Assembly (NCBI GenBank): GCA_964445165.1
Contig: CAYUJZ010000001.1
Coordinates: 1,591 to 65,590 of the forward strand
Reading direction: 5' to 3'
DNA: 64,000 nucleotides
From: an uncultured Methanosarcinales archaeon
GTDB lineage: Archaea; Nanobdellota; Nanobdellia; Woesearchaeales; JASKKU01
Of the stretch, positions 6,582 through 41,422 are shown one piece after another; the first letter of the stretch is position 1; every line of letters begins with the position of its first letter. The position numbers and the translations under genes are program-made. The notes beneath the pieces are model-generated. The model did not search any database and was not told the DNA's origin. It saw only the letters and a list, made by a program, of their open reading frames with translations.

Positions 6582-6618
6582 ACCACTGAATTCAGCACAT
6601 TTTTTATCTTGCTCCAAA

Positions 6619-7581: not shown

Positions 7582-7595
7582 CATCAATCTTTAAC

Positions 7596-22228: not shown

Positions 22229-22340
22229 GAAATCACTATTGTTAGTCTTGCTTTATTATTTATAAAGCCTTTGGATTAAAAACAGTTTATTAATGGAAAG
22301 ATATAAAACATAAACCTTACTTCACAGAAAGATGCCAAAC

Positions 22341-22847
22341 CTATTGCTCACAAACTACTGCAATCGGTCGTGCCCTTACTGCTTTGCGAAGCAGAAGGTT
22401 GACCTTGAGAAGACAGAGGGGCTTGAGGGCGAGCTCAAGCCTTCGATTTTGAAAAAGGGCTGAAATAGAGCCTGAATCTGCAAAGAGTTCAATTATGCTC
22501 TTTAATGTTAACTCTCCCTCGCCCAAAACCGCAATGTCCGCGATGGTGAGGGATTTTTCTGGCTGTATTGTTGGGCCTGGGCCCCCTATTATTCTTAAAG
22601 CACTGATTTTTGAGAAAAAATGCCTGTTTTTGTTTAGATGGTATTCCATAGAAAAACTATTTGCAGAGAAAGCTACGATCTGGAACTTTTTAGAGAGAAT
22701 CTCTTTGGAGAGTCTGTCAAAGTACCAAAAAGAAAAATCCTGCTCTTTCTTAAGGTAAGAGATTAGTTCAAGCAAGCCAGCGTTCACATGGCCTGTTTTT
22801 AAACCCTGGTTCAGATCAACAAAGGCTATTCTAGGCTTTTGCCGCAT
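22341..22847 (-). pseudogene. truncated duplicate of the N-terminal 138 aa of the B12-rSAM gene at 19876-21243
   Basis: The N-terminal 138 aa (codons inside duplication copy 2) are identical to the 19876-21243 product, then it diverges into 30 unrelated residues and stops. Confidence 0.75.
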
Positions 22848-23138
22848 AAAACAGCAAGTATAAAGGGGTTTTTATTTATTTTGATTTTTCTGAGCTAAAA
22901 AAGACATTCGGAATTAACCAAAGCAAATGCCTGAAACACAGCTAACATTATTAATCTAACAAAGGCTTGAGCTCGCCATCGCCATAAACTTCTTTATATG
23001 TGATTGCTATTCCGGGACAGGAATCCTTGTAAATGCAGGGCTTGCATTTCTCGGTTTTTATGTGCATTTTGTCATCTTCTCCTGAGCCATTGATAAAGTA
23101 AGGGTTGTATTTCATCAGCCTAGGGAATATGCAGAAAA
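22433..23138. repeat. copy 2 of the ~706 bp segmental duplication; also carries a 3' fragment (about 60 codons) of the short rSAM gene
   Basis: A handful of mismatches relative to 20829-21534, e.g. gtagggg/gtaaggg. Confidence 0.9.
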
Positions 23139-23289
23139 GGCTATGCCCGCGAGAATTATCCCGTTGTTAACTAGGCTAAAAGAACTGACACTGCCTCTTT
23201 AATCATCCAGAAAAAAAGCAATCCTCTTTTTAACTTTAGGGAGCATTTCAATCATTAAGTTGTTGAGGATTCTTAAACATTTCCCTTTT

Positions 23290-24855
23290 CTAAATGCCTA
23301 TTATCTTAAATCGGGTGTTAAAAAAGCCTCTTTTTTGGGCTTTTTCAAGCACTTTCTGGTTCTCTTTATACCCTTCCTGGAACAAAGCCAGCTCAACCAC
23401 AAAAGGGTCCAAACAGCCAAACATCTGTCTTGCCGAGGGGTCATAAACAAAACTTAGCCTGAACTTTGGCGAAACAAACGAAAGCAGGTCCAGAAAAAGC
23501 TCATCCAGGTCAATCCCTGGCTTATTGGCAAACTCATCAAAAACCTCCTTAAAGGGGTTAGCCTTAACAAGATGGTCTAAGGTATAAAGAAATCTGGGTG
23601 AGCCCTGAATAATTGAAAGGTTTATTGCCACAAAGGAGCTTTTTAAGCCAGAATTAAAGAACATGTCCTTAACAGCCCTATTAAATGGCCTGTAAAAGTG
23701 CTCTTTCTTATTCGAAAAATCAAAAACAAGCTTAGGATAATCGCGCGTAATGCATGCCCGGGTATCCTTTGAGAATTCGCTCTCATCCGCAAGAAAGAAT
23801 ATCTTTTTATTGTTAAAAAACCTCTTATTTCCCCCGAATTGATTAACCAGCTTAAGCACAGAGGAATAGGTATCTTTGGGGTTAACATTAACAAGAAAGC
23901 CGTCATCCACAAAATTGCTCTTTTCTTTGATTCTCACTGAAGCAGCAAGAGGGTCGCTAAATACCGGGTTTAGCTCTTTTACATCATAAACATTCAGGTA
24001 GCTTTGCTTTACCCCGGGGCATAATGAGGTAAAGAAGCAATTTTCACAAATCTCGGGGTTTTTGACATACTCAAACTCACCGTAAGACTGCTCTCTATCA
24101 AGAAACTTCGTCTCATAATACTCTACTCCAGACGCCCTGAGAGCCTCAGAAGAGTAATACTCGAAATCTTTAAGGTAGCAAAGAGGCACCCTTTCTATCC
24201 TAAGGGTTGTCTCATGTCTCTCAGCTTCCTTTGCGGCATTATACAAGTAAGGCTCTGCAAGGGAATACCTGGGAACAACATTCTTTCTTATGGACTTCAT
24301 AATTTCCGGGTCATTTGAAGCAGGATCAACAAAATTCATTGTCCAGGTGTTTATTTTTGAGTGCTTTGAAGCATCTTTTATAATTTGTGGCAGAACCATA
24401 TAATTCTTTTCAATAATGGTTGTGTTCATGTTAACCTCAAAGCCGTGCTTGTGTGCAAAAGCCATGTTTTGGAATACTGTGGGAAGCTCAATCTCATCAG
24501 CACCGTTTATCTCCATCTCGGCTTCAGCATCGTAATGATGTATAGAAAAGACAAACTTATCAACATACCCTTTAAGCTTAAGAATAAGCTCTTCAGTAAG
24601 CTTTGTGCCATTAGTTATCATTCTTACCTGGGCTTTTGGGGCCTTTGCTCTGAGCATCTGAGCAAGCTCAACAATTTCAGGGTGCATAGCTGGCTCCCCA
24701 CCAGTAAGCACGAACATGTCTGCACCCTTTGAAATAAACTCATCAACCTTCTTCTCAAAAAGCTCTTTTGAGATATAATCTTCTGTCTTTTCTACTGAGC
24801 AGAAAATGCACTTGTGATTACAGTCAAGGGTAACAACAATATAGCCATCCATCAC
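23290..24855 (-). CDS. radical SAM enzyme of the short-family type with a ~200 aa C-terminal extension (family member 3)
   Basis: CNHKCIFC at residues 12-19, TGGEPA, CENCFFTSLCPG near residue 300. Confidence 0.8.
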   Translation of the reverse strand: MMDGYIVVTLDCNHKCIFCSVEKTEDYISKELFEKKVDEFISKGADMFVLTGGEPAMHPEIVELAQMLRAKAPKAQVRMITNGTKLTEELILKLKGYVDKFVFSIHHYDAEAEMEINGADEIELPTVFQNMAFAHKHGFEVNMNTTIIEKNYMVLPQIIKDASKHSKINTWTMNFVDPASNDPEIMKSIRKNVVPRYSLAEPYLYNAAKEAERHETTLRIERVPLCYLKDFEYYSSEALRASGVEYYETKFLDREQSYGEFEYVKNPEICENCFFTSLCPGVKQSYLNVYDVKELNPVFSDPLAASVRIKEKSNFVDDGFLVNVNPKDTYSSVLKLVNQFGGNKRFFNNKKIFFLADESEFSKDTRACITRDYPKLVFDFSNKKEHFYRPFNRAVKDMFFNSGLKSSFVAINLSIIQGSPRFLYTLDHLVKANPFKEVFDEFANKPGIDLDELFLDLLSFVSPKFRLSFVYDPSARQMFGCLDPFVVELALFQEGYKENQKVLEKAQKRGFFNTRFKIIGI

Positions 24856-25715
24856 TCCTCGCCTCCTTCCTTAAGTGGGCTGAGTGCATGGCCCGGCTCA
24901 ATCCTGAACTCCTTAAAATATCTTTCATAAAAACCCGCACATTTTTCATTAAAACAGCACGTGCTGCAGGATTCTGCTTTTATCCTGGGCACAATGCCAA
25001 CAGGATTTTTAACTAACGCCTTGCCAAGCTGGCCTTCAGCCAGAAAGCAGAAGGGAATGTTTCTTAACTCCAGAGCCATTCCTGTCTTGCTGGCACTCTC
25101 AATTATTTCCGTTAAAGCATCCTGCAGTATTAAATGATGCGGCATAAGCATAAAAAAGTTATCTTTTCCCAAGCCTGCAGGCTCAAAAAGCATGATTTTC
25201 CATTTAGATGCCTTAAGCCTCTTAAGCAAAAAAGGCATGCTTTTCAGGTTGGAATCATTGCATTTCGTCAGCACAGTGCTCACTTTGGTATCAAAGCCGG
25301 CAGAGGCAAGGTCTAAAAGCCCCTTCACAGACTGAATCCATGAATCCTCTGTACGAGTAAGGAAGTCGTGGATGTCCCTTCTCGAGGCATGCAGGGAAAC
25401 ATTGAACACAAGCTTTTTCTGAAAAGGCTTAAACTCCTTCAAGAAGGCAGGCACTGCAAGCATCCTACCGTTTGTATTAACCTCTATCATTTCAAAGAGA
25501 GAAAAAGCCTTCTTCACCAAAATCGGCAAGCCTTTGTACAGAGTTGGCTCCCTTGCAGAAATAACTAGCCTTTGCCCCTTTGCCAGGCCCTCAGCATCCA
25601 AGGCCTCCTGAATTTGCTTTATCTCGATTGACGGGTTTTTGCAAAACCAGCAATTATTGTTGCAGGCCTCAGAAACCTGCAATTTCAAGCATTCGGAGTG
25701 CATGGCTAAAGGCAA
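24852..25715 (-). CDS. short radical SAM enzyme, twitch-like C-terminus (family member 4)
   Basis: CNNNCWFC, LHASRRDIHDFLTR, C-terminal CSTCCFNEKC; overlaps the upstream gene. Confidence 0.8.
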   Translation of the reverse strand: MPLAMHSECLKLQVSEACNNNCWFCKNPSIEIKQIQEALDAEGLAKGQRLVISAREPTLYKGLPILVKKAFSLFEMIEVNTNGRMLAVPAFLKEFKPFQKKLVFNVSLHASRRDIHDFLTRTEDSWIQSVKGLLDLASAGFDTKVSTVLTKCNDSNLKSMPFLLKRLKASKWKIMLFEPAGLGKDNFFMLMPHHLILQDALTEIIESASKTGMALELRNIPFCFLAEGQLGKALVKNPVGIVPRIKAESCSTCCFNEKCAGFYERYFKEFRIEPGHALSPLKEGGEE

Positions 25716-25782: not shown

Positions 25783-27372
25783 TTAGCCAGGAATTCTAAG
25801 GATTATGAACTCCGGGCTTTCATTATAAACAAGCTCAAAGGAGATGTTAAGGCTAGCCAGCTCATCTCTAACATCAAAATCCGCCCTCTCTGCAAACACA
25901 ATCAGGGTTTCCCCAGCTTCAGGCCTGTAATCTTCAAAAGAAATAGTATGGTCAAACCGTTTTATACATCTTTCATCAGAATAGAAAGCCATTAGATTAT
26001 CAGAAAGCATATCGGAAAACGGGATATTATAAAGAGTGAATCTTGCTGAACCAATATCAGCCACGCTCTCTAGGTAAGAGCAGTTTGCAGCCTTGCTAAT
26101 AAAATCCAGGCCATGGCTTTTTTGCGTACTTACATGCCCATAAATCGAAGGGTATGCATAAAAGCCGAAAAACAAGCTTGCTCCTGCCAAAAATACCAAA
26201 AGTGAAATGAATGCCATCTTTATCAAGGATTTTCTTTTGATAAGCTCAATCGAGCCTGATTCAAAAAAGCATGCGAGCAGAACAAAAAAGAAGAACAAAA
26301 GATAGGAAAAAAAATATTTCTGATTTACAAAAGTGGATGTTTCAAAAGATGAAAACAGAATAAGGAAAAAGAAGGGAAGCAGTGCCCACCATTTCTTAAA
26401 ATAAAACACATAAAAAGCTGTGAAGACAGAAAAACCAAGAAAGATAAAAAAAGACGGAAAATACGACAGCAAGCTCTCACTGACATTCATAAAGAAATAA
26501 TAAAGAGAGAAGCCGCGATTCACATTAAAGAACAGAACGTGATAGACAAATGGGGCAGCCAAAATAAAGAAAGCAGACAGGGCAACTGCAGAAAAAGCCT
26601 TATTCTTTTTAAGAAATTTATACGAGAAAACAAAAGGAATAAGAAAAAAAATCGCTCCGTGTTCAAACTTGATATATGCCATAGCAAGAAGAATTAGAAG
26701 AAAAAGCGAGACAAGAAAATAGCGTTTAGGCTTAGGCATAAAAAGCTTTCTATTTCCTTCGAGGCTGCAAAAAACAGGCACCAGCGCCACGATCAGGAAA
26801 AGAGAGAAAAATTCCGCAACTGAATATAGCGAACCATACAATGTTATTGGATTAAAGAAAATAAAGCACAATAATGCAAAAGAAGCAAGCCTGCTCAATT
26901 TTGTAGTCTTTAAGAGAAAGTAAAGCAAAATCCCGGCAGAAACAAAAACCAGGGGATTTAACAGGCTGATTTTTCTGGCGAAGCCAGAAAAAAGAGAAAA
27001 AAGGTACAGCACAAAAGAGTAACCCATAGGGTGAGATGGGTGAACAAAAGGGAGCAGAATCATTTTTTCAGAGAAGGGAATCTCAGGGTCCCGCATTATA
27101 TCAACATGATTCAGATATGTCCAAACTTGGGCGTCATGCCCAAAAAACGGCTCGTGCCTGAAAGAGAAAGCAGAATACAAAAAAACAAAGGCAATAATGA
27201 AAGCTACCAAGAAAAATGCGTCTTTCCAGCCAAGCTTAATTCCACTAAGGTGCTTTAAAAAAAAATAAAGCAAAAAACAGAAAAGCAAAGAGAATATAAT
27301 TATTACAAAAGGATACTCGAGCCTGCCCAATGCTGATAAGCCCGGTTCAAGAAAAGACAGGAACATAGGCAC
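25783..27372 (-). CDS. polytopic membrane protein, GT-C-like glycosyltransferase candidate
   Basis: 529 aa, more than 12 TM helices, FFGHDAQ in the first loop. Confidence 0.45.
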   Translation of the reverse strand: MPMFLSFLEPGLSALGRLEYPFVIIIFSLLFCFLLYFFLKHLSGIKLGWKDAFFLVAFIIAFVFLYSAFSFRHEPFFGHDAQVWTYLNHVDIMRDPEIPFSEKMILLPFVHPSHPMGYSFVLYLFSLFSGFARKISLLNPLVFVSAGILLYFLLKTTKLSRLASFALLCFIFFNPITLYGSLYSVAEFFSLFLIVALVPVFCSLEGNRKLFMPKPKRYFLVSLFLLILLAMAYIKFEHGAIFFLIPFVFSYKFLKKNKAFSAVALSAFFILAAPFVYHVLFFNVNRGFSLYYFFMNVSESLLSYFPSFFIFLGFSVFTAFYVFYFKKWWALLPFFFLILFSSFETSTFVNQKYFFSYLLFFFFVLLACFFESGSIELIKRKSLIKMAFISLLVFLAGASLFFGFYAYPSIYGHVSTQKSHGLDFISKAANCSYLESVADIGSARFTLYNIPFSDMLSDNLMAFYSDERCIKRFDHTISFEDYRPEAGETLIVFAERADFDVRDELASLNISFELVYNESPEFIILRIPG

Positions 27373-27413: not shown

Positions 27414-28409
27414 TTACTTAGATACGCCAGGATTTACCTTTGAGAAAGCTATGTTTTTCTTAACCCTGTTATAAAGGTCTTCTGAAAGTGGGTTAAAGTG
27501 ATAATCTTTATTATTCAGCAAATGCTCTCTCAGAATACCACCGCAAATACCATCTTTTTTCAGAAAGCACTTTTCACATTGCCAAAGATATTCCTGATTC
27601 CTGTAGTCTTTTACAATATCCTTTATTCTTTTGTTAATCTCATCATCTGAAAGGTTGTAAAGGTAGAAAACATTAAAAAATCTTATCGAATTAAACCCAA
27701 GAAGATCTTCTTCAGAGAAAATGCACAGGGGAACATATTCGATTCTTATATCTTCAGCATCTAACCTGCTAATCTTAAGGACGGCCCTTCTGATATCAGA
27801 AAAAGAAACCAAAAAATCCTGAAACCTTATGTTCTTATTATCGTTATGAAGATAAGGCATTGTGAGCCGCCAGGGATATATCCCAAACTCTTTCCTGCAG
27901 AAAACAAACATATCATAAAAGTTCTCGATGTTCTGCTTAAGAAAAACAGAAGTCAGCCTAATTTCAATGCCCGAATCCAGCTCAAGAAGATTCTTAATTC
28001 CCTTGACAACCTGATTAAAGGCGCCCGGATTTCCAACTGCAGCATCGTGGTATTTTGCTTCTGAGCCATAAATAGGTATAAAAACCCTCGAGATGCCGGT
28101 CTTAGCAAACCTGCTGGCAAAACTCTTGTCAGCAAGCCTGTTTCCCGGGTCAAGAAGACTTATATCATCAAAACTTTTAGATAACCAGGAAAGAAATTCT
28201 ATGATTTTAGAGTATTTCAAAGGCTCAGAGCCAGAAACATCAATCCTTTTAAATCCGTTTTTTCTGAAGTAAAGCGCATCTTTGAGAAGCTTCTTCTCTT
28301 CTTCAAGGCCTAGGTCGTCGTTATGTAAACTCTTGTCCGGCTTACAAAACACGCAGTTATTAGAGCAACGCGGATTGATGAGAATGCTCCCAAACTTGTC
28401 TTCTTTCAT
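27414..28409 (-). CDS. short radical SAM enzyme, twitch-like C-terminus (family member 5)
   Basis: CSNNCVFC, SGSEPL, C-terminal CEKCFLKKDGIC. Confidence 0.8.
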   Translation of the reverse strand: MKEDKFGSILINPRCSNNCVFCKPDKSLHNDDLGLEEEKKLLKDALYFRKNGFKRIDVSGSEPLKYSKIIEFLSWLSKSFDDISLLDPGNRLADKSFASRFAKTGISRVFIPIYGSEAKYHDAAVGNPGAFNQVVKGIKNLLELDSGIEIRLTSVFLKQNIENFYDMFVFCRKEFGIYPWRLTMPYLHNDNKNIRFQDFLVSFSDIRRAVLKISRLDAEDIRIEYVPLCIFSEEDLLGFNSIRFFNVFYLYNLSDDEINKRIKDIVKDYRNQEYLWQCEKCFLKKDGICGGILREHLLNNKDYHFNPLSEDLYNRVKKNIAFSKVNPGVSK

Positions 28410-28497: not shown

Positions 28498-29439
28498 ATG
28501 CAAAAAGAGTACTGCATCCTGAAAATAAACAACAAGTGCAACTACATATGCAACTTTTGTGCCGACTCTCTCAAGATTAAGGCTGAGGAGGAAATAGAAT
28601 TAAATGAAATTCTTTCCATAATTAAAAAAGAAAAAGATGAGGGTGCAATCAAGCTTCTTATAACAGGAGGGGAGCCAACCATATCCCCGCACCTTTTACC
28701 TGCTATTAAGAAAGGAAAAGAGCTTGGCTTTGAGAGCATTAGCCTAACAACAAATGGAAGAAAGCTTTCAGAAGATGATTTTTTCGCAGATGTTAACAGC
28801 TATATTGATGTTTACCTTATATCATTTTTCTCGGCTGACCCTTACACTTTTGACACTATCGCCGGAGTAAAAGGAGCTTTCTCAGATGTGAGTAAGGCTC
28901 TTCTTAAGATTTCAAGAGAGAAAAAAAAGAAACTTTGCATTAATTGTGTCATCTCAAGAATGAATTATAGAGAACTCAACAACATTGTTGTATATCTTGC
29001 ATCACTTGAAGCCTCTTTAATACAGTTCAGCTTTGCTAATATTGTTGGGTTTTTTAGAGATAATTTCGATAATCTTTTTGTTGATTACAATGAAATCTTG
29101 CCCTATGCTGTGAAAGCAATCCGGCTCTCTGAATACCTTAATTATAAAGGGCTTAGTTTTGAGAATTTTCCAATATGCCTTTTTTCAGGACACCTGCCTC
29201 TAAAAAAGGTTATGCCTAGGATATCTGACTTACACCATCCTGCAGGAAACAAAAAATACTATTCAAGCGGCAAGATGCATACACAAAAATGCAGGGAATG
29301 CTTCTTTCTAAACAGGTGCGAGGGCATTTACGAAGAGTACTATAGAAGAAGAGGAGACGGTGTGCTGACATCAATAAAAAAAGAAGATTTTGAAGACGAA
29401 AAAAAAGCAAATAAAAAAGAAAAAGTTAAAAATCATTAA
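28498..29439 (+). CDS. short radical SAM enzyme, twitch-like C-terminus (family member 6)
   Basis: CNYICNFC, TGGEPT, C-terminal CRECFFLNRC. Confidence 0.8.
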   Translation: MQKEYCILKINNKCNYICNFCADSLKIKAEEEIELNEILSIIKKEKDEGAIKLLITGGEPTISPHLLPAIKKGKELGFESISLTTNGRKLSEDDFFADVNSYIDVYLISFFSADPYTFDTIAGVKGAFSDVSKALLKISREKKKKLCINCVISRMNYRELNNIVVYLASLEASLIQFSFANIVGFFRDNFDNLFVDYNEILPYAVKAIRLSEYLNYKGLSFENFPICLFSGHLPLKKVMPRISDLHHPAGNKKYYSSGKMHTQKCRECFFLNRCEGIYEEYYRRRGDGVLTSIKKEDFEDEKKANKKEKVKNH

Positions 29440-29459
29440 AAAAACATGAGCGTGTTTTT
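29440..29459. terminator. hairpin AAAAACA-tgagcg-TGTTTTT flanked by T/A runs in the 22-nt gap between the convergent rSAM and rpL15 genes
   Basis: Perfect 7-bp inverted repeat with oligo-T on both strands, placed between two convergent stop codons. Confidence 0.35.
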
Positions 29460-29461
29460 GC

Positions 29462-29986
29462 TTATTTTGCTGCTCCTGCTTCTGGAGAATTATCAGGTGG
29501 CGCTTCTGCGGGCTTCCCTGGCTTGCTTTCCTGCCCTGGCTTTTTCTTAGGCTTTGCCTGAGCCAGCTCCACATCCCCGCCTGCTGCCTTGACCTTGGCT
29601 ATTGCCTTTTCTGTTGCAAATGCGACTTTAACCTTAAATGCCGCAGCAACCATGCCTTTTCCAAGGAGCTTCTGGTAGCCTTTCTCAGCTAAGTCAACAG
29701 GAATGCTCTGGCCTTTCTTAGGTTCAATGCCTGAAGAAAGCGCGAGAGCCTCAAGCTGGAAGACATTTATCGCTTTGTACTTGTTCTGCTTTGGGGGCCT
29801 GAACTTCCTGCTTGAGAAGTATTTTTTGTCCTTCCAGATGCTTGGCTTTTTCTGGTCTGCCTTCTTGCCTGTGCCTGCCATGCCTCTGCCGCCCCTGTGA
29901 CCGGCTCTCCTGCCGTACCTGTGGCCTGAGCCGCTCCACCTATTGCCTCTCTGCCTTCCTGCTTTTTTTCTCTTGTTGACAACCAT
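29462..29986 (-). CDS. rpl15: ribosomal protein L15 (uL15) with a K/A/P-rich C-terminal tail
   Basis: N-terminal RKKAGRQRGNRWSGSGHRYGRRAGHRGGRGMAGTGKK is typical of uL15; it sits last in the cluster. Confidence 0.85.
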   Translation of the reverse strand: MVVNKRKKAGRQRGNRWSGSGHRYGRRAGHRGGRGMAGTGKKADQKKPSIWKDKKYFSSRKFRPPKQNKYKAINVFQLEALALSSGIEPKKGQSIPVDLAEKGYQKLLGKGMVAAAFKVKVAFATEKAIAKVKAAGGDVELAQAKPKKKPGQESKPGKPAEAPPDNSPEAGAAK

Positions 29987-30361
29987 CTAAACCATCCTCT
30001 TGACCAGCTCGTTCATCTTGTCTTTCCTGTAGCCAAGGGCTCCGCCCCTGCTGAACGGCTTCTTGACTCCTTTTCTCTCAAATCCCTTTACCGGCGGGGA
30101 AAGGAAAAACACGCTGCTCTTGCTTCCTGAGCCGGCATTCCTGTCTTTTCTCTTTTCTGAGAGAAGCTTAAAGGTCTCTTCGCTGATCTCGCCAAAAGTC
30201 GCGTAATCCTTAACCCTTTCGAGCATTCCCATCACAGAAGGAGTCTTCTCAAAAACGGAGCATGCCATCTTCTTCCTAAGGTTTAGCTTATCCAAGGTAT
30301 CCTTTATCCTGATATCTGCCCCTATCCTTGACCTGATTAAAACAACTGCTATTCTTTCCAT
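29987..30361 (-). CDS. rpl30: ribosomal protein L30 (uL30/L7Ae-unrelated L7e type)
   Basis: MERIAVVLIRSRIGADIRIKDTL... The ORF-track start at 30445 is probably too far upstream, and I prefer the internal Met at 30361. Confidence 0.8.
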   Translation of the reverse strand: MERIAVVLIRSRIGADIRIKDTLDKLNLRKKMACSVFEKTPSVMGMLERVKDYATFGEISEETFKLLSEKRKDRNAGSGSKSSVFFLSPPVKGFERKGVKKPFSRGGALGYRKDKMNELVKRMV

Positions 30362-30362
30362 T

Positions 30363-31571
30363 TTACTCAGCCTTCGCTGCTTCTTCTGCCTGCCCTGCTT
30401 CTTCAAGCTCGGGCTGCTCGGGCTTTTCTTTTGGCACCGAGCCATCTATTATGCCGAGCGAACTGACATAAGCATAATCATTAACCTTGATTGCAGAGAG
30501 CTGGTAAAGCGCTTTCTCAACTGCCTTAACAAGGTTAAACTTGTTCCTGGCAAGGCCAGATGCATTAACCCAGATGTCTTTTATCCCGGCCTTATCGAGT
30601 ATTTTCTTCACCTCTTTCTCTGCAACAATTCCATTGCCTTTTGGCGCTGGCAGAAGCGTTACCTCTACAGAGCTGCTCTTTCCGTACACCTTAAACGGAA
30701 TCGAGTGGGGCTCCTTGCAGCCGCATTCCCATGAGCCGCAGCCCCTCTTAATTTTAATAACATTAACCTTGGCCTGCTTTGTTGCCTTTTCCCTTGCAGG
30801 CACTGTATCTTTTGACTTGCCGAATCCTATGCCGACATGGCCGTCGCTGTCACCTACAACCGCAACCGTGGCAAACCTCGGCTTGTTTCCTTCAGCAGTC
30901 TTTTTCTGTGTCTGCTTGAAAACCCTTCTCTTTCCGCCACCGAACTTTCCCTTTGCCTGCCCTGTAAGCAGAAGCTCAGAATCCAGCTCCGGCAGCAGGA
31001 TTTCCACTATCTCAGGTTCAAGGATTCTCAGGCCTTTTGAAAGGATATCATCAAGATTGGTTATCTCCTTGCTCTTTACCTTTTTCCCAAGGGTTGTCCT
31101 GGGTGTCCAGTCATCAAAAGAAGCAAGCCTGTCCCGTGGCTTGGCTTTTTCCGGCTTTGTCACTGTTTCTTCGTCTTCCTTAAATTCATCGAGGACTTCT
31201 TTTGGGAGCGGGCTTGCGTTTTCATCAGCATTGTCATCTGTCTCATCATCAGTTTTTTCTGCTGTCTCTTCCTCAGGCTCAGCTTTGTTTCCCTTTTTTT
31301 TCTTTTCTTCTTTTGCTTCTTCAGGCTTGGGCTCTGCCTCAGGCTTCTGTTCCGGCTTTTTCTCAGGCTCCGAGCCTTTTTCCTGCTTCTGCGCTTTGGG
31401 CTTGGCTGCCTTGTTTTCTTTTTCCACTTTCTTTGCCTTCTCCGCTTTCTCTTGCTTTTGAGCCTCTGCAGCTTTCTGCTGGGATTTCGGCTCTTCAGCA
31501 GCAACCGGTTCCTGCCCTGCTGCTGCCTCTGGCTGCTCCTTCTTGGCCTCTGCAGGCTTTTTTGCTAACAT
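30363..31571 (-). CDS. rps5: ribosomal protein S5 (uS5) with a ~190 aa K/E/A/P-rich N-terminal low-complexity extension and an acidic C-terminal tail
   Basis: The conserved core runs LASFDDWTPRT...GKFGGGKRRVF...VAVVGDSDGHVGIGFGKSKD...LLPAPKGNGIVA. Archaeal S5 is normally about 210-240 aa, and this one is 402 aa. Confidence 0.85.
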   Translation of the reverse strand: MLAKKPAEAKKEQPEAAAGQEPVAAEEPKSQQKAAEAQKQEKAEKAKKVEKENKAAKPKAQKQEKGSEPEKKPEQKPEAEPKPEEAKEEKKKKGNKAEPEEETAEKTDDETDDNADENASPLPKEVLDEFKEDEETVTKPEKAKPRDRLASFDDWTPRTTLGKKVKSKEITNLDDILSKGLRILEPEIVEILLPELDSELLLTGQAKGKFGGGKRRVFKQTQKKTAEGNKPRFATVAVVGDSDGHVGIGFGKSKDTVPAREKATKQAKVNVIKIKRGCGSWECGCKEPHSIPFKVYGKSSSVEVTLLPAPKGNGIVAEKEVKKILDKAGIKDIWVNASGLARNKFNLVKAVEKALYQLSAIKVNDYAYVSSLGIIDGSVPKEKPEQPELEEAGQAEEAAKAE

Positions 31572-32200
31572 TAAAGATCACCTTTTAAGATTGAGTTTTT
31601 GGCTTTTTCAAAGCCTTTTGTGATGTCTAAAGGGGAAATCTTCTTTGAAAGATATCCTGAGAACTGCTTTTTGTACTGCTCCGGGCTTTCCTTCTCGAGC
31701 TTCTGTGCATAGCTTTCTATGTGCTTTCCTGAAAGCCTGTCCTCAGGAGGGTAAACGCCTTCTCCGTGCGAAACTGAAAGCTCTGCATCAACCAGGCCTT
31801 TCAGAAACGCTGACTCAACAGAGCCCTTGAAGAATGGCCTAATGCCAAAGTCTAAAATGAACCCGTCCTTAAACTGGTTGAAGTCTTTTGCCTGCTTTAG
31901 CTTCTTTCCAAAAAACAAGCCGAAGAGATAGGCTGCTGGAATGCTGTTCTTCGAGTAATCCCAGCCAAGCTTAGGCAGGACTTTTGAGCTCATGCCATAA
32001 AGAACCTTATCTCCCTTTGCATCAAACCTTACTACCTGTGCACTAAGGCTCTTGCTTCCTCTCTTAAAAACAATCCTAGCTTTTCCTGACTTAAGGAGGT
32101 TTAGCCTCTTCCTGTAGTCAGTCTTGCCTTCCCTTTTCCTTCTAAACGGTAAAACTATTGCCATTTTAACCTTTCTTATCTGCTTTCTCTTTTTTTTCAA
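31571..32200 (-). CDS. rpl18: ribosomal protein L18 (uL18/L5e)
   Basis: RKREGKTDYRKRLNLLKSGKARIVFKRGSKSLSAQVV. Confidence 0.85.
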   Translation of the reverse strand: MKKKRKQIRKVKMAIVLPFRRKREGKTDYRKRLNLLKSGKARIVFKRGSKSLSAQVVRFDAKGDKVLYGMSSKVLPKLGWDYSKNSIPAAYLFGLFFGKKLKQAKDFNQFKDGFILDFGIRPFFKGSVESAFLKGLVDAELSVSHGEGVYPPEDRLSGKHIESYAQKLEKESPEQYKKQFSGYLSKKISPLDITKGFEKAKNSILKGDL

Positions 32201-32639
32201 AAAGCTCCTTCTCGGACATGAAGTACTTCAAGTGCCTCAGGCTCCTGAAAAACCCGCTTTTTGCCCTTCTGTACAGCTCTCGATAATTGCTATCTGAAAC
32301 AAGCTTTTTCAGCTTAACTTCTTTAAGGAACTGCCTTTGCTTCCTTATTTTTGACATCCAAGTTTCCTTCTTTGACTGCCTGGCGCCTGCTGTGCCTTTT
32401 CTAGAGCCATGGCCTTTCCTGTGGCCTTTTTTCTTTTTTTCCTGGAGCTCTTTTGACCTTGAATTTGAGATTCCCCTGGCCGGTAGCTTGATAATCGCTC
32501 CCTTATGAATAAGTATCTTGATGTCTTCTCTTGTGATTGCCTCTTTAATCTCATCCAGGGAAGCCTCATCCAGCGAAACCCTGCTCGGAGAGCACTTCAT
32601 AATGTCTGCCGCAATCCGTTTTTTGATTTTGAGATTCAT
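32166..32639 (-). CDS. rpl19e: ribosomal protein L19e (eL19)
   Basis: MNLKIKKRIAADIMKCSPSRV...KGHRKGHGSRKGTAGAR. Confidence 0.85.
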   Translation of the reverse strand: MNLKIKKRIAADIMKCSPSRVSLDEASLDEIKEAITREDIKILIHKGAIIKLPARGISNSRSKELQEKKKKGHRKGHGSRKGTAGARQSKKETWMSKIRKQRQFLKEVKLKKLVSDSNYRELYRRAKSGFFRSLRHLKYFMSEKELFEKKEKADKKG

Positions 32640-32659
32640 TTAAATCACATTACCTGCTT

Positions 32660-33316
32660 TTAGCTTCTTTTCGTAAGTATCTTTTCATACTCCCTTCTTT
32701 TCTGCTTTTCCTTCTCTTCCGGAGAGAGCTCTTTTTCCTTCTGCTTCCCTGCTTCTTTATCTTCTTTGCCGGCTTCTTTCTTTTCTTCTGGCTTCGCTGC
32801 CTTTGCCTCTTTTTCCTTCTTCTCTTTCTCCTTATCTTCTTTCTCTTTTTCTTCAACTATCTTTTCCATTGACTTCTTCTTTTTCTTTGCCTTTTCTTCC
32901 TTGGCTTTCTTCTTCCCGTAAATCTTTGACTTTGCTTCCTCAAGTGTTGCATTTACAACCAGAAGCCTGAGCTTCCTGGCTTCCTCAAGGATAGAAAGCC
33001 TTTTTCTGAGCCCAACTGTTGAGCCTATGAAAATACAATGCTTCTCCGGATTTAGCTTTGAAAGCTGTGCTGGGGACATAATAACAACAGGCAAAAGCCC
33101 TGATGGGTGATAGCCCTTAACCTCGCCTGGGCTGGAATAGCCAACCTGTGCCATCTTTGCATACCCCCTGAACTTCCTCCGGATTTTTGACTGGTGGCCT
33201 TTCGGCTTTCTCCACTTGCCCTGGTTTCTTACTCTCCGTTTTGAGCCCGGGAACTTGTAATCAGGCTTTTTCCCCTTTATTTTTTTCCTTAGCTCAAGGC
33301 TTTCTTTGATTCCCAT
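32660..33316 (-). CDS. rpl32e: ribosomal protein L32e (eL32) with a ~80 aa K/E-rich C-terminal extension
   Basis: KFPGSKRRVRNQGKWRKPKGHQSKIRRKFRGY...YSSPGEVKGYHPSGL. Confidence 0.85.
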   Translation of the reverse strand: MGIKESLELRKKIKGKKPDYKFPGSKRRVRNQGKWRKPKGHQSKIRRKFRGYAKMAQVGYSSPGEVKGYHPSGLLPVVIMSPAQLSKLNPEKHCIFIGSTVGLRKRLSILEEARKLRLLVVNATLEEAKSKIYGKKKAKEEKAKKKKKSMEKIVEEKEKEDKEKEKKEKEAKAAKPEEKKEAGKEDKEAGKQKEKELSPEEKEKQKRREYEKILTKRS

Positions 33317-33326
33317 GATTATCTCC

Positions 33327-33875
33327 TTATGATAGCTGCTTTCCGTTTTTTTCGATTATGTATATCCCGTCCTGGAAGACTCTCCTGTCCCTGTTCGAGA
33401 TTCTTGTGAGCTGCTCCAGCCTCGTGGCGCAGTTCCCCACTTTTTCAATGTCTATGCCTTTTACATCGATGATATCCCCGTTAAGCTTGACCTCAACATC
33501 CGAAGGCAGGGCAAGCTTTCTTGGGATGTTCTCTCCAAAAAGGTTTTTTACTGAAATCTCTCCTTTCTGAACAGACACCGAAACTGGAAAGTGGCTGTGG
33601 CATACCTTAAGCCTGTAAACAAAGCCTTCTGACACGCCTTTGAAAAGGTTTCTAATGTGCGCTGCATAGGTCAGCATCATCCTTTTTTCCCTTTTTGTAG
33701 CATTCTTCGCTGAGAGCAAAACTTTCTTTCCGTCTGACTCAATCTTAACCTTAGGATAGCTAAAGGCTTTCCTGGCTTCCCCAAGAGGGCCTTTTACTAA
33801 TATTGACTTGCCCTCTACTGACAGCTGGATGCCTTCAGGTATTTCTACTTCCTGTGCCAGGTTTTCTATTTTCAT
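33327..33875 (-). CDS. rpl6: ribosomal protein L6 (uL6)
   Basis: VEGKSILVKGPLGE...LTYAAHIRNLFKGVSEGFVYRLKVCHSHFP. Confidence 0.85.
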   Translation of the reverse strand: MKIENLAQEVEIPEGIQLSVEGKSILVKGPLGEARKAFSYPKVKIESDGKKVLLSAKNATKREKRMMLTYAAHIRNLFKGVSEGFVYRLKVCHSHFPVSVSVQKGEISVKNLFGENIPRKLALPSDVEVKLNGDIIDVKGIDIEKVGNCATRLEQLTRISNRDRRVFQDGIYIIEKNGKQLS

Positions 33876-33894
33876 TTTGGTTTGTTTAAAGCAG

Positions 33895-34290
33895 TCAGTA
33901 GCAGTAAGCTATCAGCCTTCCTCCGGTGTTCTTTTCCAGTGCCTCCTTGTGTGTCATAATGCCCTGGGGTGTTGAAACAACAATGATTCCAAAGCCATGC
34001 GCAGGAAGGTATCTTTTCTCAACATTCGTGTAGTCTGTGCTTCTGACAGATATTCTTGGCCTGATGGATGCGCACTTGTTAATGTGCCCGAGCAGGCTCA
34101 CTCTTATATGCCTGCCTTTAGAGGTCTGCTCGATGCCAAAGCCTCCAATGTACTTGTTATCCTGGAGGAGCTCAAGTACCTTAAGCAGCATGTTTGAAAC
34201 ATACTGAATCTCACACTCTTTCTTGTTTTCTTTCTCGTATGTGTACAATTTTGATAATGCGTTTGAAACTAAGTCTGTCATCATTAACAC
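33895..34290 (-). CDS. rps8: ribosomal protein S8 (uS8)
   Basis: TDLVSNALSKLYTYEKENKKECEI...GFGIIVVSTPQGIMTHKEA. Confidence 0.85.
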   Translation of the reverse strand: MLMMTDLVSNALSKLYTYEKENKKECEIQYVSNMLLKVLELLQDNKYIGGFGIEQTSKGRHIRVSLLGHINKCASIRPRISVRSTDYTNVEKRYLPAHGFGIIVVSTPQGIMTHKEALEKNTGGRLIAYCY

Positions 34291-34292
34291 CT

Positions 34293-34535
34293 TTATGAGT
34301 ATTTTTTGAACCCCAGCTCTGTGGCTATATCCCTAAAGCACTGCCTGCACAGGTGAAGCCCGTATTTCTGTATGTGTGCGCCATGCCTTCCGCAGTTCGC
34401 GCACTTGTATTTTGTCTTTCCGCAGCTCCTATCCTGCTTCTTGCCGTGCTTAAGAAACTTGTTAAGCTTTGCCGGCTTTGGCTTAAGCTGCTCTGCCCCT
34501 TTTCTATAGTCTGTTGCGGTCATTCTGTCAGGCAC
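34293..34535 (-). CDS. rps14: ribosomal protein S14 (uS14, Zn-binding type) with an N-terminal extension
   Basis: C-terminal [25 protein letters not shown]. Confidence 0.8.
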
Positions 34536-34536
34536 C

Positions 34537-35136
34537 TCACGATATTATGCTCGCTCCAAGCTCTTTCTTTGCGAATTCCATTGCATCCTGCTTTGAGATT
34601 GCAACCTTACTCCTGATTGGCTTCTTCAGAAGCTTTCTTCTTCTCAGCCTGAACCCGTCTCTCCTAAGGGTTACTGCTGCCTCAAACCCGAAGATTCCTA
34701 GCTTTGGGTCATATTTCAGTTCAGGAACATCAATGTACTCAGGTATGCCAAAGGAGAAGTTTCCTGCATCATCAAAGCACGACTCTTTCAAAGACAGGTT
34801 AACTGCTGCCAAGAGCCTCTTGAGAACCTCCTTTGCCTTTGGTCCTCTTAAAGTTACCTTAACTCCCAACGGGAGGCCCGGCCTTATGTCCCAGGTCGGA
34901 ATCCTTTTTGTTGTAAAGGTTTTTACTGGCTTCATTCCTGTTAGCCTTTCAAGCAGCACCAGGCCTGCATCAAGCCTGGCTGCATCCCTTCCTGCGCCAA
35001 TATTAAGCGTTACCTTCTCTATCTTCACAGCCCTGTGCGGGTTCTGGGATTTTGGCTTAGCTTTGCCCTTAGCCTTTGGCTCTTTGGCTTCCGGCTTCTT
35101 GCCTTTTGCTTCCTTCTGGACTGCTTCAGCTGCCAT
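34537..35136 (-). CDS. rpl5: ribosomal protein L5 (uL5) with a K-rich N-terminal extension
   Basis: [25 protein letters not shown]...[28 protein letters not shown]. Confidence 0.85.
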
Positions 35137-35836
35137 TTGAATCCCTCCGTATTGTTAATGCTGGCTCTTTTTTTCCAACTACAAGCAAGCTTTTAACCTC
35201 GACTTCTTTTGAATAGTCACCTATTTTAACAACAGCTTTCTTGCCTGATACTGAATCCACTATGCCAAGCTCAGCTATGTGGCTTCCTGAAGCAAAAAAC
35301 ACAACACTGCCCTTGTCAAGCTTAAAGGTTTCCAATATTTTGTTTTCCTTGAAGTCCAGCACAGCACTGTCTCCTGTTGAAATTTCCAGCTTTCCATCAT
35401 GAAGAAGGTTTGTGCCGTCACTAAAGTTAAGATGCACTTTCCCTGCCTTAAGTGTGGATTTAGATATAAGCTTGACAATCTTTTTGGTGCTTTCCTTTTC
35501 AGTTATAGGAATGCTGCCTAAGTAGCCTCCTTTGGTAAGAACTACCCTGAAATGCTGCTTTGCTTCAGGGATGGATATAACATCAAAGAGAGAAACAGGA
35601 ACCTTGTGGCTTTTTGGGGCTTTCTGGTTAACAAGCACCTTGTTATTGCGTATAAGGTAGCTTACCTCGCTTGTTGTAGAGCAGATGCCAAGCTTTTCCT
35701 TAAGCCAGGTCGAAAGCGGCATGCCAAGCCTTAGGCTGCCCCTACCCGGAAGCGGCCTTGCAATAAACACTGACGACTTCCTTGTGATTTTCCATGTCCT
35801 GGGCGCTGCCACCCTTTTAAGATGATACTTTACCAT
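35126..35836 (-). CDS. rps4e: ribosomal protein S4e (eS4)
   Basis: MVKYHLKRVAAPRTWKITRKSSVFIARPLPG. Confidence 0.85.
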   Translation of the reverse strand: MVKYHLKRVAAPRTWKITRKSSVFIARPLPGRGSLRLGMPLSTWLKEKLGICSTTSEVSYLIRNNKVLVNQKAPKSHKVPVSLFDVISIPEAKQHFRVVLTKGGYLGSIPITEKESTKKIVKLISKSTLKAGKVHLNFSDGTNLLHDGKLEISTGDSAVLDFKENKILETFKLDKGSVVFFASGSHIAELGIVDSVSGKKAVVKIGDYSKEVEVKSLLVVGKKEPALTIRRDSNGS

Positions 35837-36305
35837 TTGAACCTACCTTTTCTTTTTCTTCCTTGCCCTTTTTTTCCTTGAGCTCTTCTGCTTTAGGCTT
35901 TTCTGCCTTTTTCTTTGCCTTTGCCGGCTTTTCCGGCTTAATGTTCTTTAGCCTTCTCGGGTCTTTGAGATTCAGCTCCACAACCTGAAGGCTTGAAGCC
36001 CTGAACGGGATTGCAGCCTTGCTTCCGTCCTTCTTTTTTGTTTCGAAGCCTTCAATATAAACCACAGAAGCTTTTGTGTCCACGCGGGAAATCTTTCCTT
36101 GCTTGCCCTTGCCTGTGCCGCGCATAACCTTTACTTTGTCTCCTGTTGACGCCCTTACGCTCCTTGTTTTGTACTTGTCTCTTAGCTCTTTTGATAGATG
36201 CGAATTTAAAAAGCCCTGCTTAATATGAAGCGGAGCATTGAAGAGGTACTTCCTCTGCTTCCTTGGCTTTGTGCTTGACACCCATTTTTTTGAAAAAACC
36301 TTCAT
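35817..36305 (-). CDS. rpl24: ribosomal protein L24 (uL24) with a K/E-rich C-terminal tail
   Basis: MKVFSKKWVSSTKPRKQRKYLFNAPLHIKQ...GDKVKVMRGTGKGKQGKISRVD. The ORF-track start at 36365 is probably wrong, and I prefer the internal ATG at 36305. Confidence 0.8.
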   Translation of the reverse strand: MKVFSKKWVSSTKPRKQRKYLFNAPLHIKQGFLNSHLSKELRDKYKTRSVRASTGDKVKVMRGTGKGKQGKISRVDTKASVVYIEGFETKKKDGSKAAIPFRASSLQVVELNLKDPRRLKNIKPEKPAKAKKKAEKPKAEELKEKKGKEEKEKVGSNGKVSS

Positions 36306-36316
36306 CACAATCACTC

Positions 36317-37309: not shown

Positions 37310-37338
37310 CCTCGCAATCTTTTCGGCAAGCCTTAGGC

Positions 37339-39210: not shown

Positions 39211-39227
39211 TTAAGTGCACCGTCCAA

Positions 39228-39611: not shown

Positions 39612-39615
39612 TCAC

Positions 39616-40329: not shown

Positions 40330-40345
40330 TTTGCCTCACCTGTGG

Positions 40346-41409: not shown

Positions 41410-41422
41410 CTTCTAAACCTTC

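Follow-up and report, generated by a model that had tools for sequence, protein, structure and literature searches.

An old, clade-wide rearrangement probably removed secY from the end of the ribosomal protein cluster and left L15 beside a radical-SAM gene cluster in Woesearchaeota

The spc gene cluster of euryarchaea and crenarchaea ends in the order L30-L15-secY-adk, as in the operons of Methanococcus and Sulfolobus. In a 64,000-nucleotide stretch of archaeal DNA (hereafter the window) the L30-L15 adjacency is shared with that arrangement, and uL15 is the terminal gene of a complete archaeal S10-spc cluster, converging on a gene for a radical-SAM (rSAM) protein. A sequence-only reading of this DNA proposed that secY either lies elsewhere or was separated from L15 by an island of rSAM genes acquired in this lineage. 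In this work we ask where secY and adk are located, and whether the island was inserted at the junction or was already resident. Woesearchaeota/Nanoarchaeota are the source of the named L15 homologues and of 80 GTDB loci, and by this homology the window organism is placed among the Woesearchaeota (DPANN).

The L15 gene (29462-29986, - strand; 174 aa; Pfam PF00828, 46.3 bits), whose product has a low-complexity C-terminal tail of roughly 30 aa, lies directly after L30 (29987-30361, - strand). The rest of the cluster, from L3 to L30, was assigned by Pfam and the called genes to positions 29987-42406 of the same strand, in the order L3-L4-L23-L2-S19-L22-S3-L29-SUI1-RNaseP p29-S17-L14, followed by L24-S4e-L5-S14-S8-L6-L32e-L19e-L18-S5-L30-L15. 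Its uS5 protein (30363-31571) is extended at the N-terminus by about 150-200 aa rich in K/E/A/P. The sequence-only reading was exact in the coordinates of the cluster end and of the convergent rSAM gene, whose stop codons are 22 nt apart. It had described the spacer between them (29440-29461, AAAAACATGAGCGTGTTTTTGC) as a 22-nt hairpin. The length is correct; the hairpin amounts to a weak, A/U-rich 7-bp stem (AAAAACA/TGTTTTT; dG -6.0 kcal/mol on the + strand and -3.3 on the - strand), which was not flagged by the terminator scan and is absent from the corresponding spacer, 30 nt long and T-rich, of a relative with 78% identity in L15 (L011). No G+C-rich stem followed by a T run, as in an intrinsic terminator, was seen in the 22 nt, and the T5 run present on either strand suggests an archaeal oligo-T terminator that acts in both directions. 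No misassembly is involved at the L15-rSAM junction: 8 independent assemblies of the window species (ENA, JGI and Logan) read across it in the same way, and 10 contigs have an identical L15 protein there.

Relatives were compared within +/-10 kb of L15. Among 77 informative related species, L15 is followed directly by SecY in 71 (Pfam SecY 205-214 bits in the four tested), and in these 71 loci an EMC3/TMCO1-like gene comes after SecY; 41 loci have L34e-L14e on the same strand as well, 1.75-4.7 kb beyond L15. The complete genome of the DPANN archaeon GW2011_AR10 likewise reads S5-L30-L15-secY-HP(EMC3/DUF106)-L34e-L14e (PMC10833476). From L3 to L15 the window has the same order as GW2011_AR10, with SUI1 and RNase P p29 inside both clusters, but it lacks secY and the EMC3-like gene after L15, its L15 meets a convergent rSAM gene after 22 nt, and its L34e-L14e pair is 31 kb off and inverted with respect to L15, with L34e and a KOW protein at window-equivalent -1.5 to -1.0 kb. 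An adk linked to secY was found in none of the 71 Woesearchaeal loci examined. The expectation of L30-L15-SecY-adk thus does not hold for DPANN, whose block reads L15-secY-EMC3-like-L34e-L14e; adk does not normally follow secY in this phylum, and its absence after L15 is therefore not anomalous. The adk gene itself was found in same-species sequence at window-equivalent 67.6-68.2 kb, encoding a classical ADK with lid domain (PF00406, 141 bits). Unlike in the euryarchaeal spc end, it is far from L15 (~38 kb), on the other side of the ribosomal cluster, between a Zn-ribbon gene and truD.

The L15-secY break was found in the window species (8 assemblies), in the 78% relative (3 assemblies) and in the L013/L014/L016 lineage (3 assemblies), and is therefore, with more than 10 independent assemblies across the clade, real and old. 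NJ trees of 16 ribosomal proteins united the window species, an 83%-identical relative (SpSt-1178-like) and three relatives at about 57% (the L013/L016/L019 lineage); the group {window, L011, L013, L016, L019} was monophyletic in 100/100 bootstraps. Its sister group {L085, L035, L050}, also recovered in 100/100, keeps L15-secY throughout. The junction is lineage-specific, as had been suspected: it is common to only this one well-supported Woesearchaeal clade. L15 is also the last gene, with no SecY after it, in L023 and L046 (where an ABC transporter comes next), L048 and L079, but these are independent breaks, in other clades and with other neighbours. The linkage is broken in about 7% of loci, whether counted from the L15 side or from the SecY side (5/72).

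Nor is secY found in the vicinity. No ORF of the window has a Pfam match to SecY or ADK. Same-species contigs extend the window to -8.1 kb and +9.4 kb (81.5 kb in total), and a six-frame translation of window and extensions, searched with SecY and EMC3/DUF106 HMMs each built from 60-65 relatives, gave nothing at E<=10; secY is absent from the 37.5 kb downstream of L15. The suggestion that secY lies elsewhere than after L15 is borne out to this extent, and the window species' own secY was not found among the metagenome SecY matches listed. A candidate for the relocated locus, L110 (GC 0.416), comes from the metagenome of the 78% relative. Its SecY (Pfam 212 bits) is, among the matches listed, at most 57% identical to about 145 others. 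It lies in a 7-kb secY-EMC3-RadA-SpoU-ZPR1-primase segment bracketed by inverted copies of a repeat, and both ends of L110 match, at 98% and 94% identity, the copy with which a contig from the window species terminates. The three near-identical copies (94-98%) are all at contig ends, two of them inverted around the secY segment and the third beside S19e, some 8 kb to the left of the window. The shared metagenome, the GC content, the orphan SecY and the shared repeat are circumstantial evidence that L110 belongs to the 78% relative.

The inverted copies around the secY segment resemble the outcome of an IS-mediated inversion or translocation (composite-transposon-like). In contrast to such a case, the ends of the element are not seen here, and no transposase domain was identified, because only 44 aa of its ORF X are visible; as ORF X has no family match, we infer rather than observe the IS-like nature of the repeat. 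Rfam searches of the window and of L104/L110 returned no match to the 122-nt repeat and nothing else but a tRNA, and ARAGORN found nothing at the repeat.

The rSAM gene that converges on L15 (28498-29439, + strand; 313 aa; Pfam PF04055, 54.9 bits) encodes an HxsC-like protein with an N-terminal CX3CX2C motif (residues 14-21) and a CxxCx5C motif close to its C-terminus; it scores 90.8 bits against NCBIfam HxsC, below the cutoff of 268. A 66% identical orthologue occupies the same position in the 78% relative, and a homologue (137 bits) lies within an Hxs cluster of a distant Woesearchaeote, L108. A word-indexed search gave only 6 matches at E<=1e-10. The second rSAM gene from L15 is at 27414-28409 (- strand; 331 aa). 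Its product shows 42-43% full-length identity (E about 1e-92) to proteins of the sister clade, L085 14973-15956 and L050 19138-20118, the latter being its best non-self representative among 1.84 billion proteins. In the sister clade this orthologue lies 4.5-8.6 kb downstream of L15-secY(-EMC3), in the opposite orientation relative to L15, so that at least two events are needed to relate the two arrangements.

Beyond it lies a polytopic membrane protein (25783-27372, - strand) with about 11 TM segments and a C-terminal soluble domain. The island encodes four proteins of this architecture, the others being recognised by TM counts at 10942-12663 (+), 12660-14162 (+) and 16633-18408 (-), and they have 9-12 TM segments and a soluble tail of 100-120 aa. 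The 25783-27372 protein has no Pfam or NCBIfam match and is possibly GT-C-like, to judge from an analogous protein of L016 with a weak PMT_2 (GT-C) match (E 7.7e-4). A single-sequence AlphaFold2 model of it was unusable (pLDDT 47), PDB sequence searches with two of the polytopic proteins gave no matches, and BLASTP showed no similarity between the 529-aa protein of the window and the L013 copy of the 521-aa polytopic protein encoded after L15, on the same strand and with no precomputed Pfam match, in L013/L016. Pfam and NCBIfam further identified a run of rSAM genes on the - strand (18434-25715), comprising two B12-binding rSAMs (18434-19879 and 19876-21243), HxsC-like or generic rSAMs (21347-22228, 23290-24855 and 24852-25715) and a truncated duplicate (22341-22847); a 704-nt repeat with 99.4% identity is found within it (20829-21532 and 22433-23136). 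The same databases identified, on the + strand, a DUF362-ferredoxin (9227-10897), a DegT-type aminotransferase (14180-15271) and a B12-type rSAM (15268-16614). DUF362 and the first polytopic protein recur in the same order in L105 (47% and 30% identity).

The core of the island lies towards its far end and is on the + strand. Three HxsD-like genes (3735-4331, 4306-4824 and 4821-5126; precomputed Pfam PF27806 HxsD) remain below cutoffs (TIGR03976 33 bits, cutoff 50; NF038315 31.5 bits, cutoff 41; E 1e-7 to 1e-8). They precede an HxsB radical-SAM/SPASM maturase (5154-6581; TIGR03978 426.1 bits, above the cutoff of 370) and an adjoining HxsC-like rSAM (6619-7581; HxsC4 135 bits, cutoff 500; HxsC 92 bits, cutoff 268), which matches the HxsC-like gene of L108 with 422 bits. 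In the place of the bacterial HxsA there follow two related proteins, a membrane protein of 377 aa (7596-8729) and one of 163 aa (8726-9217) that is paralogous to the C-terminal domain of the first (E 1.4e-9). The far end carries a Cys-rich secreted protein (947-2020, - strand), a 111-aa TM protein (2166-2501, + strand) and an A24-like polytopic peptidase (2464-3642, + strand; Arc_PepC, E 1.2e-4). Homologues of these far-end genes (947-3642) are found in the same relative order in L013/L016, L105 and L106/L107, and a Peptidase_A24 gene is present in the L108 cluster as well. The distance from L15 to the A24-like peptidase is about 26 kb in the window, with 22 genes in between; in L013/L016 it is about 3 kb, with 2 genes.

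The bacterial HXS antiphage system consists of HxsD-HxsB-HxsC-HxsA and is found to 99.7% in Pseudomonadota (PMC13128918). We compared the island with it and with the NCBIfam variants HxsA3, HxsA4, HxsC4 and HxsD_rel. The window resembles the bacterial system in its HxsB, which is above the equivalog cutoff, and in its D-B-C order, with HxsD-like genes before HxsB and an HxsC-like rSAM after it; the related L108 cluster in addition carries two HxS/T-repeat proteins. It differs in that the host is archaeal, that three HxsD-like genes are present and the HxsC-like proteins fall below cutoffs, that no HxS-repeat protein is encoded in the 81 kb of the window species, and that the core is accompanied by genes for an A24-like peptidase, DUF362, B12-rSAMs, a DegT aminotransferase and four polytopic proteins. 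No ORF with at least 4 H-x-S/T per 40 aa was found in the window, its extensions, L105 or L106, and the two HxsA-like proteins of L108, used as phmmer queries, detected no homologue there. PADLOC reported only generic rSAM-core matches to pVip.

We consider it probable that secY-EMC3 was relocated long ago, across the whole clade, and left L15 beside a resident rSAM cluster, and that no recent foreign insertion took place. The alternative put forward by the sequence-only reading, a horizontally acquired, lineage-specific island that inserted between L15 and secY and displaced the latter, seems unlikely to us. Its composition may speak for this, with GC3 at 0.405 versus 0.464 in the right flank and 0.499 in the ribosomal genes, and a codon-usage (RSCU) correlation of 0.88 versus 0.96; the L15-adjacent rSAM has few detectable homologues, the island differs eight-fold in size between subclades, and the 704-nt repeat indicates a recent duplication. 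Since island content differs so strongly between subclades, part of it may indeed have been gained. However, secY is not found beyond the island in the 37.5 kb downstream of L15, and the core genes are widespread in DPANN and follow the species phylogeny: the HxsB homologues at 86, 65, 55 and 46% identity are all from DPANN and track ribosomal-protein identity (83, 57 and <=46%). L105 has the same cluster, with HxsB 65% identical to that of the window, and the same left flank; it and L106/L107 keep the order A24-like peptidase-HxsDx3-HxsB-HxsC-like(-DUF362-polytopic), and in the 78% relative the island is present at both edges. In L108, in the middle of a 411-kb contig, the A24-like peptidase, HxsD/HxsB/HxsC-like, DUF362 and B12-rSAM core recurs more than 10 kb away from any ribosomal gene; in the other 74 L15 loci, no HxsB homologue lies within 10 kb of L15. 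The borders also argue against insertion: no integrase or transposase Pfam match was found in 947-29439 and no flanking (direct) repeat at the island edges, and the tRNAs are confined to 42.6 and 43.6 kb. A further argument is the sister-clade orthologue of the 27414-28409 rSAM, which lies downstream of L15-secY. The same rSAM genes at another locus in relatives, which would speak for a rearrangement, were in substance found, with L15-secY and the Hxs cluster seen in different genomes. Graded identity to nearest homologues from Woesearchaeota/DPANN thus indicates that the island is not a foreign acquisition.

Two further explanations can be given very little weight. A fusion of the ribosomal contig to an unrelated rSAM contig by assembly or binning might be suspected, as the contigs of this population are often interrupted within the island, among other places at the 704-nt repeat, and contig L012 of the relative diverges abruptly inside S5; this is highly improbable in view of the identical junction in the eight assemblies of the window species, its recovery in three assemblies of the 78% relative, and the comparable secY-less junction in three of the L013/L016 lineage. 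Equally improbable is a secY still at the locus but too divergent to recognise, for instance among the roughly 500-aa polytopic proteins, of which the window has four and L013/L016 one directly after L15. The SecY HMM and the architecture of these proteins rule them out: there is no match at E<=10, and 9-12 TM segments with a soluble tail are unlike SecY. The L016 protein weakly matches PMT_2 instead, and the metagenome of the relative contains a normal SecY on a contig tied to the clade.

Under the preferred explanation of an old relocation, which is ordinary genome rearrangement, the secY-EMC3/DUF106 pair would have moved off the end of the S10-spc cluster in the common ancestor of this family-level clade, possibly by recombination at copies of the IS-like repeat. 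L15, made terminal by this departure, would have come to abut rSAM genes already nearby and the lineage's own Hxs-type rSAM/membrane-protein cluster, which would since have expanded and been reshuffled in place. The ribosomal transcription unit would now end in the T-rich spacer of 22 nt that also lies downstream of the convergent rSAM gene. Simple models with a single inversion (L15|secY...L14e inverted) failed to reproduce the observed order.

A broader interpretation, which we offer as speculative and rather doubtful, has two parts. The cluster may represent an archaeal derivative of the His-Xaa-Ser system that lacks HxsA and matures and exports a non-HxS envelope protein, with three HxsD-like chaperones, HxsB, several HxsC-like rSAM paralogues, an A24-type signal peptidase, the DUF362 Fe-S protein, the DegT aminotransferase and the four GT-C-like membrane proteins; the 377-aa/163-aa pair after HxsC may be its substrate. 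By analogy, it could serve in modification of the DPANN cell surface or as an antiviral barrier. In the same interpretation an outward-facing TATA box borne by the IS-like repeat may be the promoter of the relocated secY.

The lost L15-secY linkage provides a clean synapomorphy for a deep, family-level clade of Woesearchaeota, and about 7% of Woesearchaeal lineages have broken a linkage that is supposed to be nearly universal, a point of concern for pipelines whose binning checks or phylogenomics combine the syntenic ribosomal block with secY. As a by-product, our analysis draws attention to a widespread and unstudied Hxs-type rSAM cluster in DPANN archaea. In this clade SecY expression is uncoupled from the ribosomal operon, and the repeat-bracketed secY segment offers a concrete example of how linkages between essential genes are broken in tiny DPANN genomes.

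Homologues of L15 and the 80 species-representative L15 loci were from Woesearchaeota/Nanoarchaeota (DPANN). In 71 of these loci L15 is followed, at a spacing of -53 to +271 nt, by an ORF of 460-475 aa, which was SecY in all four cases tested (Pfam 205-214 bits), and in relatives the gene after SecY encodes an EMC3/TMCO1-like (DUF106) protein of about 250 aa. L34e and an L14e-like KOW protein are encoded on the same strand 1.75-4.7 kb past L15 in 41 loci, and the complete DPANN genome GW2011_AR10 shows the same order, ...S5-L30-L15-secY-HP-L34e-L14e (PMC10833476). The adk gene lies outside this block; an ADK homologue was found within 10 kb only in loci L023 and L046. The reference order assumed in the sequence-only reading, L30-L15-SecY-adk, is thus right for secY but wrong for adk in the phylum Woesearchaeota, given the 71 L15-secY loci, GW2011_AR10 and the unlinked adk.

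In the window, the complete archaeal S10-spc cluster occupies the minus strand upstream of L15, from L3 (at 42406) to L30, with SUI1 and RNase P p29 inside it, and ends at uL15 (29462-29986, minus strand, 174 aa; PF00828). Between its stop codon and that of a convergent gene for an HxsC-like radical-SAM (rSAM) protein (28498-29439, plus strand, 313 aa; Pfam PF04055, 54.9 bits) lie 22 nt, AAAAACATGAGCGTGTTTTTGC; these coordinates and the absence of SecY agree with the first description of the junction. The rSAM protein carries CX3CX2C at residues 14-21 and a CxxCx5C motif close to its C-terminus. An assembly artefact was ruled out, since eight contigs from independent ENA/JGI/Logan assemblies, 99.9% identical to the window, contain the identical L15 with the same rSAM gene converging on it. 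The hairpin proposed for the 22-nt spacer does exist as a 7-bp A/U stem (dG -6.0 kcal/mol on the plus strand, -3.3 on the minus strand), but it is weak, was not called by a terminator scan and is not kept in the closest relative (L15 78% identical), whose spacer of 30 nt is T-rich and hairpin-free. The T5 runs present on both strands would be a likelier archaeal termination signal.

Several features of the neighbouring genes were also recorded. The uL15 protein has a low-complexity C-terminal tail of about 30 aa (29462-29560), and uS5 (30363-31571), at 402 aa the longest among some 80 relatives (range 237 to 352 aa), carries an N-terminal, K/E/A/P-rich extension (about 150-200 aa). In the 78% relative, positions 1-8790 of contig L012, from another sample, are 99.97% identical to contig L011 over S5 (3' part)-L30-L15-rSAM; inside the S5 extension the match stops, and the sequence further upstream is entirely different, with a tRNA synthetase and hypothetical genes in place of L18. 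Either the strains differ by a rearrangement or the contig is chimeric. A minus-strand ORF of 1289 aa (44923-48792), flanked by thiI and the SRP54 gene, has no Pfam match.

SecY is missing, despite enough downstream sequence, from the window species, from the three contigs of the 78% relative (L011, L012 and L015) and from three more distant loci (L013, L014 and L016), whose L15 is 51-56% identical to that of the window. In a neighbour-joining tree of 16 concatenated ribosomal proteins (2607 columns, 100 bootstraps), the window, L011, L013, L016 and a further distant member, L019, were grouped in 100/100 replicates, with a sister clade (L085, L035 and L050; 100/100) in which L15-secY-EMC3 is kept throughout. 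Concatenated identity to the window was 83% for L011, 56-58% for L013, L016 and L019, and at most 46% for all others. This places the break on the stem lineage of a deep clade. In three unrelated cases other Woesearchaeota have lost secY after L15 independently: L023 with L046, L048, and L079. In L023 and L046 (10.5-14.2 kb) L15 is followed by genes for the ATPase and permease of an ABC transporter, and at L15 of L048 a secreted protein and transposase-like ORFs are encoded. Among the loci with enough downstream sequence, the break is confined outside the window's clade to these three cases, which bears out the suggestion of a lineage-specific junction. From the SecY side, 5 of the 72 informative metagenomic Woesearchaeal SecY loci among the matches listed had no L15 upstream, and roughly 7% of Woesearchaeal lineages have lost the linkage.

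The secY gene does lie elsewhere, one of the two possibilities raised initially. HMMs built from 65 SecY and 60 EMC3/DUF106 proteins of relatives gave no match in a six-frame translation of the window at E<=10, and none of its ORFs of at least 90 aa had a Pfam match to SecY or adenylate kinase. Same-species contigs, 99.8-99.98% identical in the overlap, extended the view to window-equivalent positions -8069 to +73421, and both SecY and EMC3 were absent throughout these 81.5 kb. The search for adk succeeded: a classical ADK with lid domain (Pfam 141 bits) is encoded at 5198-5827 of contig L097, window-equivalent 67595-68224, between a Zn-ribbon gene and truD and near L44e-S27e-eIF2alpha, with no linkage to either secY or L15. 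The genes for L34e and the L14e-like protein were located at -1.5 to -1.0 kb, beside DNA ligase and on the strand opposite to L15.

Scanning metagenomes with a SecY alignment yielded, among the matches listed, Ga0129302_1006748 (L110; 7.1 kb, GC 0.416), from the metagenome that is the source of the 78% relative. It encodes SecY (Pfam 212 bits), an EMC3-like protein, RadA, SpoU, ZPR1 and a fused primase, without L15 upstream of secY, and none of about 145 other Woesearchaeal SecYs among the matches listed is more than 57% identical to its SecY. The first 122 nt of L110 (1-122) match the terminal part of the left contig of the window species (L104 19881-20003, window-equivalent about -7.9 kb) at 98% identity, and there the repeat abuts S19e; the last 144 nt of L110 (6954-7096) are a second, inverted copy with 94% identity. 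All three copies lie at contig ends, and inverted copies thus bracket the 7-kb secY-EMC3-RadA-SpoU-ZPR1-primase segment. Every copy comprises the start of a divergent ORF (MKEKTKLINKVKRLIKRAGIPRWLHRFGPKKYEFWHH...) and an 11-bp GC-rich hairpin, with CTTTATAAA 13 variable bases further on. The repeat carries an outward TATA-like box and matches nothing in Pfam or Rfam. It appears to be a multi-copy IS-like element flanking the secY segment, and L110 probably belongs to the 78% relative.

The genes left of L15 were assigned using Pfam, NCBIfam and TM counts. Beyond the junction, the minus strand encodes an rSAM protein (27414-28409), a polytopic membrane protein (25783-27372), an HxsC-like rSAM (24852-25715), an rSAM (23290-24855), a 168-aa truncated duplicate of a B12-rSAM N-terminus (22341-22847), an rSAM (21347-22228), two B12-binding rSAMs (19876-21243 and 18434-19879) and a polytopic membrane protein (16633-18408). 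Plus-strand genes follow for a B12-type rSAM (15268-16614), a DegT aminotransferase (14180-15271), two polytopic membrane proteins (12660-14162 and 10942-12663), a DUF362-ferredoxin (9227-10897), a 163-aa protein (8726-9217), a 377-aa membrane protein (7596-8729), an HxsC-like rSAM (6619-7581), HxsB (5154-6581; TIGR03978, 426 bits, cutoff 370), three HxsD-like proteins (3735-5126) and an A24-like peptidase (2464-3642), and a minus-strand gene for a Cys-rich secreted protein (947-2020) comes last. The 163-aa protein and the C-terminal domain (residues 217-342) of the 377-aa protein are paralogues (29% identity, E 1.4e-9). The four polytopic proteins (500-590 aa) each have 9-12 predicted TM segments and a soluble C-terminus of 100-120 aa, with no family matches and no detectable similarity between them; their analogue after L15 in L016 gave a weak PMT_2 (GT-C) match. 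A direct repeat of 704 nt (20829-21532 and 22433-23136; 99.4% identity, spacing 1604 nt) covers the 5' end of B12-rSAM 19876-21243 and the 3' end of rSAM 21347-22228, and its duplication left behind the truncated ORF 22341-22847. Both copies contain breakpoints of independent assemblies.

The other initial proposal was that this island had been inserted at the junction as a lineage-specific acquisition. GC3 is moderately lower in the island (0.405) than in the right flank (0.464) or the ribosomal genes (0.499). Neither integrase, transposase, tRNA nor flanking repeat was found at the island edges. The pattern of HxsB argues against acquisition: among 1464 homologues (E<=1e-20), all named matches in the best 120 are from DPANN (Woese-, Pace-, Aenigm-, Iain- or Nanoarchaeota), and identities of 86, 65, 55 and 46% run parallel to ribosomal-protein divergence. 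So do related clusters. In the 78% relative the L15 edge (L011/L012/L015) reads L15-rSAM-rSAM (proteins 66 and 69% identical to those of the window), and loci from its samples (L106/L107) show the far edge, A24-like peptidase-HxsDx3-HxsB-HxsC-like. Locus L105 (GCA_964615385.1) has the order Cys-rich, A24-like peptidase, HxsDx3, HxsB, HxsC-like, 361 aa, 164 aa, DUF362, polytopic, the 361-aa and 164-aa pair likewise standing behind HxsC-like. In a distant Woesearchaeote (L108, 144-166 kb of a 411-kb contig), a cluster with no ribosomal gene within 10 kb comprises a B12-rSAM, a Peptidase_A24 gene, HxsD, an HxsD-related protein, HxsB, an HxsC-like rSAM, a 23290-type rSAM fused to DUF362 and a 28498-type rSAM (137 bits). 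In the other 74 L15 loci, no HxsB homologue occurs within 10 kb of L15.

A third line of evidence is the rSAM protein of 27414-28409, which has 42-43% full-length identity to a sister-clade protein encoded 4.5 kb (L085) or 8.6 kb (L050) downstream of L15, past secY-EMC3. Among 1.84 billion proteins only 24 representatives reach E<=1e-30, and that of L050 is the best non-self one. An rSAM gene was thus already downstream of L15 before the break, and what changed was the departure of secY-EMC3. Judging from these sequence comparisons, the rSAM/Hxs-type cluster is resident and not a lineage-specific acquisition. It was remodelled in place after the break, as L15 and the A24-like gene are separated by 22 genes (~26 kb) in the window and, in L013/L016, by only two genes (~3 kb), one for a PMT_2-like polytopic protein and the other for a B12-rSAM. 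A 2.3-kb contig (L096, SRR23823815_22017; GC 0.31) from the same sample as L014 encodes a 28498-type rSAM (46% identity) and, immediately after it, a B12-rSAM that shares 48% identity with that of 19876-21243; these may be genes of the island that lie at a different locus in the L013 lineage.

The cluster resembles the bacterial HXS antiphage system, which has the order D-B-C-A and is 99.7% confined to Pseudomonadota (PMC13128918), in its HxsDx3-HxsB-HxsC-like arrangement, here in an archaeal (DPANN) host. It differs in lacking HxsA and in HxsC and HxsD scores under the cutoffs; no HxS-repeat gene was found near the module (3735-9217). L108, in contrast, has the same module plus two HxS/T-repeat proteins (5375-6219), with 11-13 H-x-S/T repeats per 40 aa and HxsA3/HxsA4 scores just under cutoff. 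Since NCBIfam holds the variant families HxsA3, HxsA4, HxsC4 and HxsD_rel, and NCBI names DPANN HxsB proteins, the family is already catalogued, though unstudied in archaea.

What the comparisons show is that the L15-secY linkage was lost throughout the clade, that the rSAM/Hxs-type cluster is resident, and that rSAM 27414-28409 has an orthologue in the sister clade. Because, compared with relatives, both this rSAM gene and L34e-L14e have the opposite orientation, at least two rearrangements would have taken place, plausibly through recombination between repeat copies. The ribosomal transcript would then end at the T-rich spacer, and the promoter of secY may lie at the edge of the repeat. As a whole the change is an old and unremarkable rearrangement whose phylogenetic signal is tidy, and the gene order is a new form of the end of the well-known S10-spc cluster, similar breaks having arisen independently elsewhere in Woesearchaeota.
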